Below, one piece after another: positions 37,579 through 38,798 of a stretch of DNA of 64,000 nucleotides. Each line of letters begins with the position of its first letter. The stretch's first letter is position 1. The stretch lies in assembly GCF_056712565.1 (NCBI RefSeq), contig NZ_CM160072.1; one strand, written 5' to 3'. A program made the translations under genes and the position numbers. The notes beneath the pieces are model-generated. The model saw nothing but the letters and a program-made list of their open reading frames with translations, did not search any database and was not told where the DNA came from.

Positions 37579-38798
37579 TTACGCCCCAATCACCTTCGCC
37601 ACCGCGTGGGCGAAACGATGCATCCCTTCATCGATATCCGCATCTTCCACCACCAGCGACGGCGCAAAACGCATCACATCAGGCCCGGCATTCAGCACCA
37701 TTACGCCTTCCTCTGCACCGGCATACAGGAAATCACGCGCCCGACCTTTGTACTGTGGTTTCAGCTCTGCGCCAATCAACAGCCCCATACCGCGAATATC
37801 GCTAAACACATCGTACTGCTGATCGATCTTCTGCAAATGGTCAACAAAACGCTGGCGTTTCGCCTGAATACCTTCCAGCACTTCAGGGGTATTGATGATA
37901 TCAAACGCCGCGCCCGCTACTGCACAGGCCAGAGATTACCGCCGTAGGTGGAACCGTGAGAACCAGGATGAAACGCGGAAGCAATCTCCGCCGTGGTCAG
38001 CATGGCGCTAACCGGGAAGCCGCCACCTAGCGCTTTCGCAGAGGTCAGAATATCCGGCGTCACGCCGTAGTGCATATAAGCAAACAGATCGCCGGTCCGC
38101 CCCATCCCGCACTGCACTTCATCAAACACCAATAATGCCTGATGCTGATCACACAGCTCGCGCAAGCCCTGCAAAAACTCTGGCGTCGCTGCCGTCACGC
38201 CGCCCTCGCCCTGAATCGGCTCAACCACCACCGCACAGGTATGGTCATCCATCACGGCTTTTACTGCGTGAAGATCGTTAAAAGGCACGTGGATGATGTC
38301 TGCCGGTTTTGGCCCAAAGCCGTCGGAATATTTTGGCTGCCCACCCACCGAAACGGTAAACAGCGAGCGACCATGAAAAGCGTTATGGAAGGCAATAATT
38401 TTGGTTTTGAACGGGCTATGACGCACACAGGCGTAATGGCGTGCCAGTTTAAAGGCGGTTTCGTTAGCTTCCGTGCCGGAGTTCATAAACACCACGCGTT
38501 CGGCAAACGTTGCCTCAATCAGTTTACGGCCAAGACGCAGCGCCGGCTCATTGGTGAAAACGTTACTAATATGCCACAGAGTTTCGCCCTGGGTTTTTAA
38601 CGCGTTCACCAGCGCAGGATGGCAATGGCCCAACGCCGTAACTGCAATGCCACCCGCGAAATCGACATACTCCTTGCCCTGTTGATCCCAGATTCGGCTG
38701 CCCTGACCTTTTACCGGAATAAACTCTGCCGGAGCATAAATCGGCAGAATCACTTCATCGAAAGTCGCGCGTGTAATTGCTGTTTGTTCAATTGCCAT
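37579..38798 (-). pseudogene. argD: Acetylornithine/succinyldiaminopimelate aminotransferase ArgD, disrupted by a 1-bp frameshift near 37933
   Basis: N-terminal 293-aa ORF (37917-38798) ends ...[13 protein letters not shown]-terminal 100-aa portion (37579-37881) is in another frame; shifted reading restores ...[21 protein letters not shown]... Confidence 0.85.

Follow-up and report, generated by a model that had tools for sequence, protein, structure and literature searches.

Here we describe an argD gene broken by the deletion of a single base in a 64-kb stretch of Escherichia coli DNA (hereafter the window, meaning the whole of the DNA that was analysed). Within the coding sequence the reading frame shifts at codon 289 and stops shortly afterwards, leaving two out-of-frame pieces of an otherwise undamaged gene. 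We give an even chance to the reading in which the base is truly absent from the DNA, in which case the window would hold a very recent argD null allele, private to one strain. The window is part of a phylogroup B2, ST95-type E. coli chromosome. The features of the locus are as follows, each with the evidence that defines it.

37579..38798, (-) strand: remnant of the whole argD gene (ORF listing, profile, structure alignment, codon view).
37917..38798, (-) strand: N-terminal frame of 293 aa, made up of 288 native residues, LWPVQ and a stop (ORF listing, NF003468 match).
37934: deletion site, one G in place of GG on the + strand, corresponding to the C lost from CCT, Pro289 (base-by-base comparison, codon view).
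37917-37919, (-) strand: premature TAG stop (ORF listing, codon view).
37579..37881, (-) strand: out-of-frame C-terminal remnant of 100 aa, ArgD residues 307-406, with a GTG start (ORF listing, profile match).

ArgD is a bifunctional N-acetylornithine / N-succinyl-L,L-diaminopimelate aminotransferase of arginine and lysine biosynthesis. The N-terminal frame matches the NCBIfam profile NF003468 (acetylornithine/succinyldiaminopimelate transaminase) over profile positions 2-287 with 587.4 bits, so that this fragment alone exceeds the curated cut-off of 522 bits. The 100-aa C-terminal frame matches positions 306-404 of the same profile, and the restored protein scores 787 bits. Both halves thus agree with the identification of the gene in an earlier note on this DNA as argD, encoding a PLP-dependent aminotransferase. 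The intact or restored ArgD (UTI89) gives an essentially full-length, near-identical alignment with the Salmonella ArgD structure 2PB0. The gene order, yhfK | argD-pabA-fic, is canonical: pabA and fic lie upstream of argD, and yhfK is convergent with it. As argD closes its run of co-directional genes and is followed by the convergent yhfK, a polar effect is not expected. The SAKALGGG motif (from residue 253) and GSTYGGN (from residue 282) both lie upstream of the shift, and the 293-aa fragment keeps Lys255, which forms the Schiff base, and Thr284, which contacts the PLP phosphate (roles as described in PMC3590144). The window therefore shares locus, gene order, Lys255 and Thr284 with E. coli and Salmonella ArgD (NF003468, PDB 2PB0), but its frame is broken at codon 289 and residues 289-406 are not translated in frame.

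In an alignment with the intact argD of UTI89 (1221 nt, 406 codons), the only difference in the 1220-nt remnant is one missing base. Codon-level comparison places the loss at coding nucleotides 865/866, where one C of the CC in the proline codon is gone, and a base-by-base comparison with NZ_CP098206.1 shows that the lone G of the + strand is GG in all relatives. The deletion site is a 2-nt run and not a homopolymer. Beyond the 288th native residue the shifted frame reads LWPVQ and then TAG, five codons past the shift, as codon 294. An uninterrupted frame of about 406 codons that includes the C-terminal part of the fold is not present, and the frame is disrupted relative to intact orthologues. 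Putting one base back yields a protein identical to WP_000963803.1, a known ArgD of the ST95-type allele; the argD DNA is otherwise identical to the allele of UTI89 and of strain Z0117EC0054 (NZ_CP098206.1), and the pabA-argD intergenic region is unchanged from that of the latter. The earlier note had described 293 N-terminal codons followed by 100 C-terminal codons in another frame, a break that removes the C-terminal domain at a site that is no long homopolymer, and a single 406-codon frame upon restoration of one base. The ORF listing, the UTI89 alignment and the codon view bear out each of these points, and its coordinates and residue strings are correct.

No other sequence examined carries this frameshift, which is thus private to the window. 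The gene argD is found in 5,425 complete RefSeq E. coli genomes, and the deletion in none of them; the best complete matches are 99.9% identical and cover 1402 nt against 1401 nt in the window, and none is gap-free. A search of JGI metagenome contigs for the exact deletion junction returned no match, whereas a control pattern permitting either length found 29 contigs, all 29 of the intact length. Neither a gene-position index nor a protein collection of about 15 billion entries (ENA, Logan and NCBI) contains the exact 293-aa product, which means that no independent assembly confirms the frameshift; the same collection does contain the truncated GspL of the sublineage described below. The 100-aa C-terminal frame is present in more than 33 contigs of that collection and has been deposited as a hypothetical protein (for example, KUT67229.1). 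Ten of these places were inspected: nine are ENA metagenome scaffolds in which argD contains a 100-N gap, and the tenth, GCA_013422845.1, is an error-ridden assembly with nine gap openings in 1.6 kb. The inspected entries are annotation artefacts and not true argD truncations, and we rejected them as instances of the same allele.

Two ways in which an active enzyme might still be made from the broken gene were considered. Full-length ArgD could in principle arise by programmed -1 ribosomal frameshifting or by transcriptional slippage, and the otherwise undamaged state of both halves is the one observation in its favour. However, the site (GGT AAT CTC TGG CCT GTG CAG TAG) has neither an X XXY YYZ heptamer nor an A/T run, and the frameshift is not conserved, since none of the 5,425 complete genomes or the 29 metagenome contigs has it. 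With slippery motif and orthologue conservation both lacking, we rejected recoding as extremely improbable. Alternatively, the 293-aa fragment and a re-initiated 100-aa fragment might together form an active transaminase. Some re-initiation is conceivable at the GTG at 37881, 36 nt downstream of the premature stop, but no Shine-Dalgarno-like sequence precedes it (ATCATCAATACCCCTGAA-GTG), residues 289-306, which link the two parts, are missing from both fragments, and no natural split ArgD was seen, the inspected 100-aa entries being those gapped or error-ridden assemblies. A two-piece ArgD is hardly credible on these sequence grounds, and was rejected on the first two of them.

The gene run of the window, rplV-gsp-tufA-kefB-crp-argD-nir-yhf-dam-hofO, is collinear with UTI89, APEC O1 and S88. 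The closest relative is strain Z0117EC0054, also collinear, from which the 64 kb differ at five places in all, as found by base-by-base comparison.

3998: gspA, synonymous SNP.
13433: gspL, nonsense SNP, Q277*.
About 28737: kefB, 72-bp in-frame deletion between the direct repeats ACAAACGCCAG and ACTAACGCCAG.
37934: argD, 1-bp deletion.
51923: php (yhfV), 2-bp deletion.

None of the complete RefSeq E. coli genomes matches the window exactly, and the SNPs at 3998 and 13433 occur in 0 of 5,426. Both SNPs nevertheless occur in contigs of independent ENA and Logan assemblies, of which 24 were read; five of these were inspected, ERZ27285767 and SRR22784710 among them, and show 100% identity to the window over stretches of up to 16.5 kb. 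SNPs held in common by independent assemblies indicate a genuine natural sublineage and a record that is faithful over 16.5 kb. Once these shared SNPs are set aside, three deletions (1, 2 and 72 bp) that occur in no complete genome are left, with zero private SNPs in 64 kb.

The other lesions and landmarks of the window were as follows.

7004..8485 (approximate), (+) strand: gspE, split by an internal stop into products of 136 aa and 327 aa.
12605..13435, (+) strand: gspL, in which CAG is changed to TAG by the SNP at 13433.
18837..20021: tufA, uninterrupted in the window; the short-read contigs L004 and L015 end inside it.
27493..29226, (-) strand: kefB, with the deletion junction near 28737 and 24 residues of the membrane domain lost.
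51122..51998, (-) strand: php (yhfV), a phosphotriesterase-related gene with TCCACG changed to TCCG at about codon 25, a frameshift.

The gspL and gspA SNPs mark a natural sublineage in which the chromosomal type II secretion system is inactivated. The gspE defect is also annotated in the near-identical NZ_CP098206.1 and is therefore lineage-wide and not private. The kefB deletion, with its flanking direct repeats, has a classic slipped-strand structure. No complete RefSeq E. coli genome has it, and the identical shortened KefB occurs in one other record, from Logan run SRR34090870 (L004). Between that contig and the window there are 41 SNPs in 11.4 kb, all of them outside positions 26958-29400, which indicates that the deletion is recurrent or horizontally shared. 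The php deletion lies outside any repeat and, like that in kefB, has no counterpart among the complete RefSeq E. coli genomes. Three guessed php fragments (289, 280 and 253 aa) have no entry in the protein collection. As with argD, the deletion may be genuine or may stem from assembly.

The question that bears most on the argD break is whether the base was lost by the organism or in the making of the record. In the latter case argD would be intact in the cell and one base would have been dropped during assembly or polishing, with the 2 bp of php lost likewise; we place the probability of this slightly below one half. The make-up of the private differences speaks for it. Ordinary mutation yields several SNPs for every indel, so a set consisting of three deletions and no substitution in 64 kb is unexpected, and private indels in excess of private substitutions are what consensus error leaves behind. 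Two frameshifts in 64 kb extrapolate to about 150 per genome, more typical of residual error than of biology. The window also runs without interruption through the tufA repeat at which L004 and L015 stop, which points to a long-read or finished source assembly, and the complete RefSeq E. coli set does not include its genome. The absence of the 293-aa ArgD and of the tested php fragments from a collection in which the truncated GspL is present, and of the deletion from every complete RefSeq genome and from the 29 metagenome contigs, weigh on the same side. Finally, 5,424 of the 5,426 complete E. coli genomes retain argD at a coverage of at least 80%; losing it is clearly not neutral and must be selected against over long times, as would suit either a very young allele or one that is not real. 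The window resembles frameshifted pseudogene calls in bacterial genome annotation, among them those produced by residual long-read indels, in that a single base is affected, in one assembly, of an otherwise perfectly conserved core gene, and in that a further small private indel, in php, lies at a distance of 14 kb.

However, residual long-read indels usually fall in homopolymers or methylation motifs, and the argD site is in neither. The run is of 2 nt, and no GATC (Dam) or CCWGG (Dcm) site overlaps it. All 78 homopolymer runs of at least 6 nt in the window agree with the reference length, as do all 13 of at least 7 nt. The argD deletion therefore does not have the usual setting of a long-read consensus error. 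A 2-bp loss in non-repeated sequence (php) and a 72-bp deletion flanked by repeats (kefB) are also atypical of consensus error, and the kefB deletion is found in an independent short-read assembly as well; given this and its direct-repeat structure, at least one of the three deletions looks biological. That none of the three lies in a homopolymer or in a Dam/Dcm site favours a real lesion. Were all three real, they would represent a bout of deletion-biased mutation in a natural ST95-type clone with a null argD, associated, for example, with SOS and translesion polymerases or with a gyrase poison. We consider that combination unlikely.

If the lesion is real, the loss of one C from the Pro289 codon would shift the argD frame and terminate translation five codons later. 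The product would be a 293-residue fragment that keeps Lys255 and Thr284 and has lost residues 289-406, the C-terminal part of the fold. Judging from the class III aminotransferase fold, this fragment should be inactive or unstable. A cell with a null argD would nonetheless be expected to survive, with other transaminases performing both ArgD reactions. The phenotype would then be a mild defect, at most slow growth without arginine, and not strict auxotrophy. GabT and PuuE reportedly contribute to acetylornithine transamination. AstC and ArgD are functionally interchangeable (PMC3590144), and argD and serC are both described as giving succinyl-diaminopimelate transaminase (DapC) activity in PMC5764234, which cites Lal et al. 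2014, Mol Microbiol 94:843. In our comparison, 5,424 of the 5,426 complete E. coli genomes have astC, and at the DNA level each complete genome shows at least two more places that resemble argD. As with engineered K-12 argD nulls, in which AstC, GabT, PuuE and SerC serve as back-up, other enzymes would be expected to compensate for the loss of ArgD alone. The K-12 nulls are laboratory deletions, whereas the window would hold a spontaneous frameshift in an ST95-type strain.

The argD break is thus an ordinary single-base frameshift of a known kind in a well-known housekeeping gene. It is explained either by a recent knockout for which redundant enzymes compensate or by a sequencing or assembly error left in the record, and it has little importance beyond that record. 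Its only mildly unusual aspect is that the window differs from its relatives by deletions alone, without private substitutions. If the break is an artefact, the record would be flagged for residual indel errors, in php too, which is relevant to pseudogene counts. If it is real, it would add to the cases in which one isolate has lost a core biosynthetic gene and redundant enzymes make up for the loss, and a mild arginine-related growth defect would be predicted for the strain.
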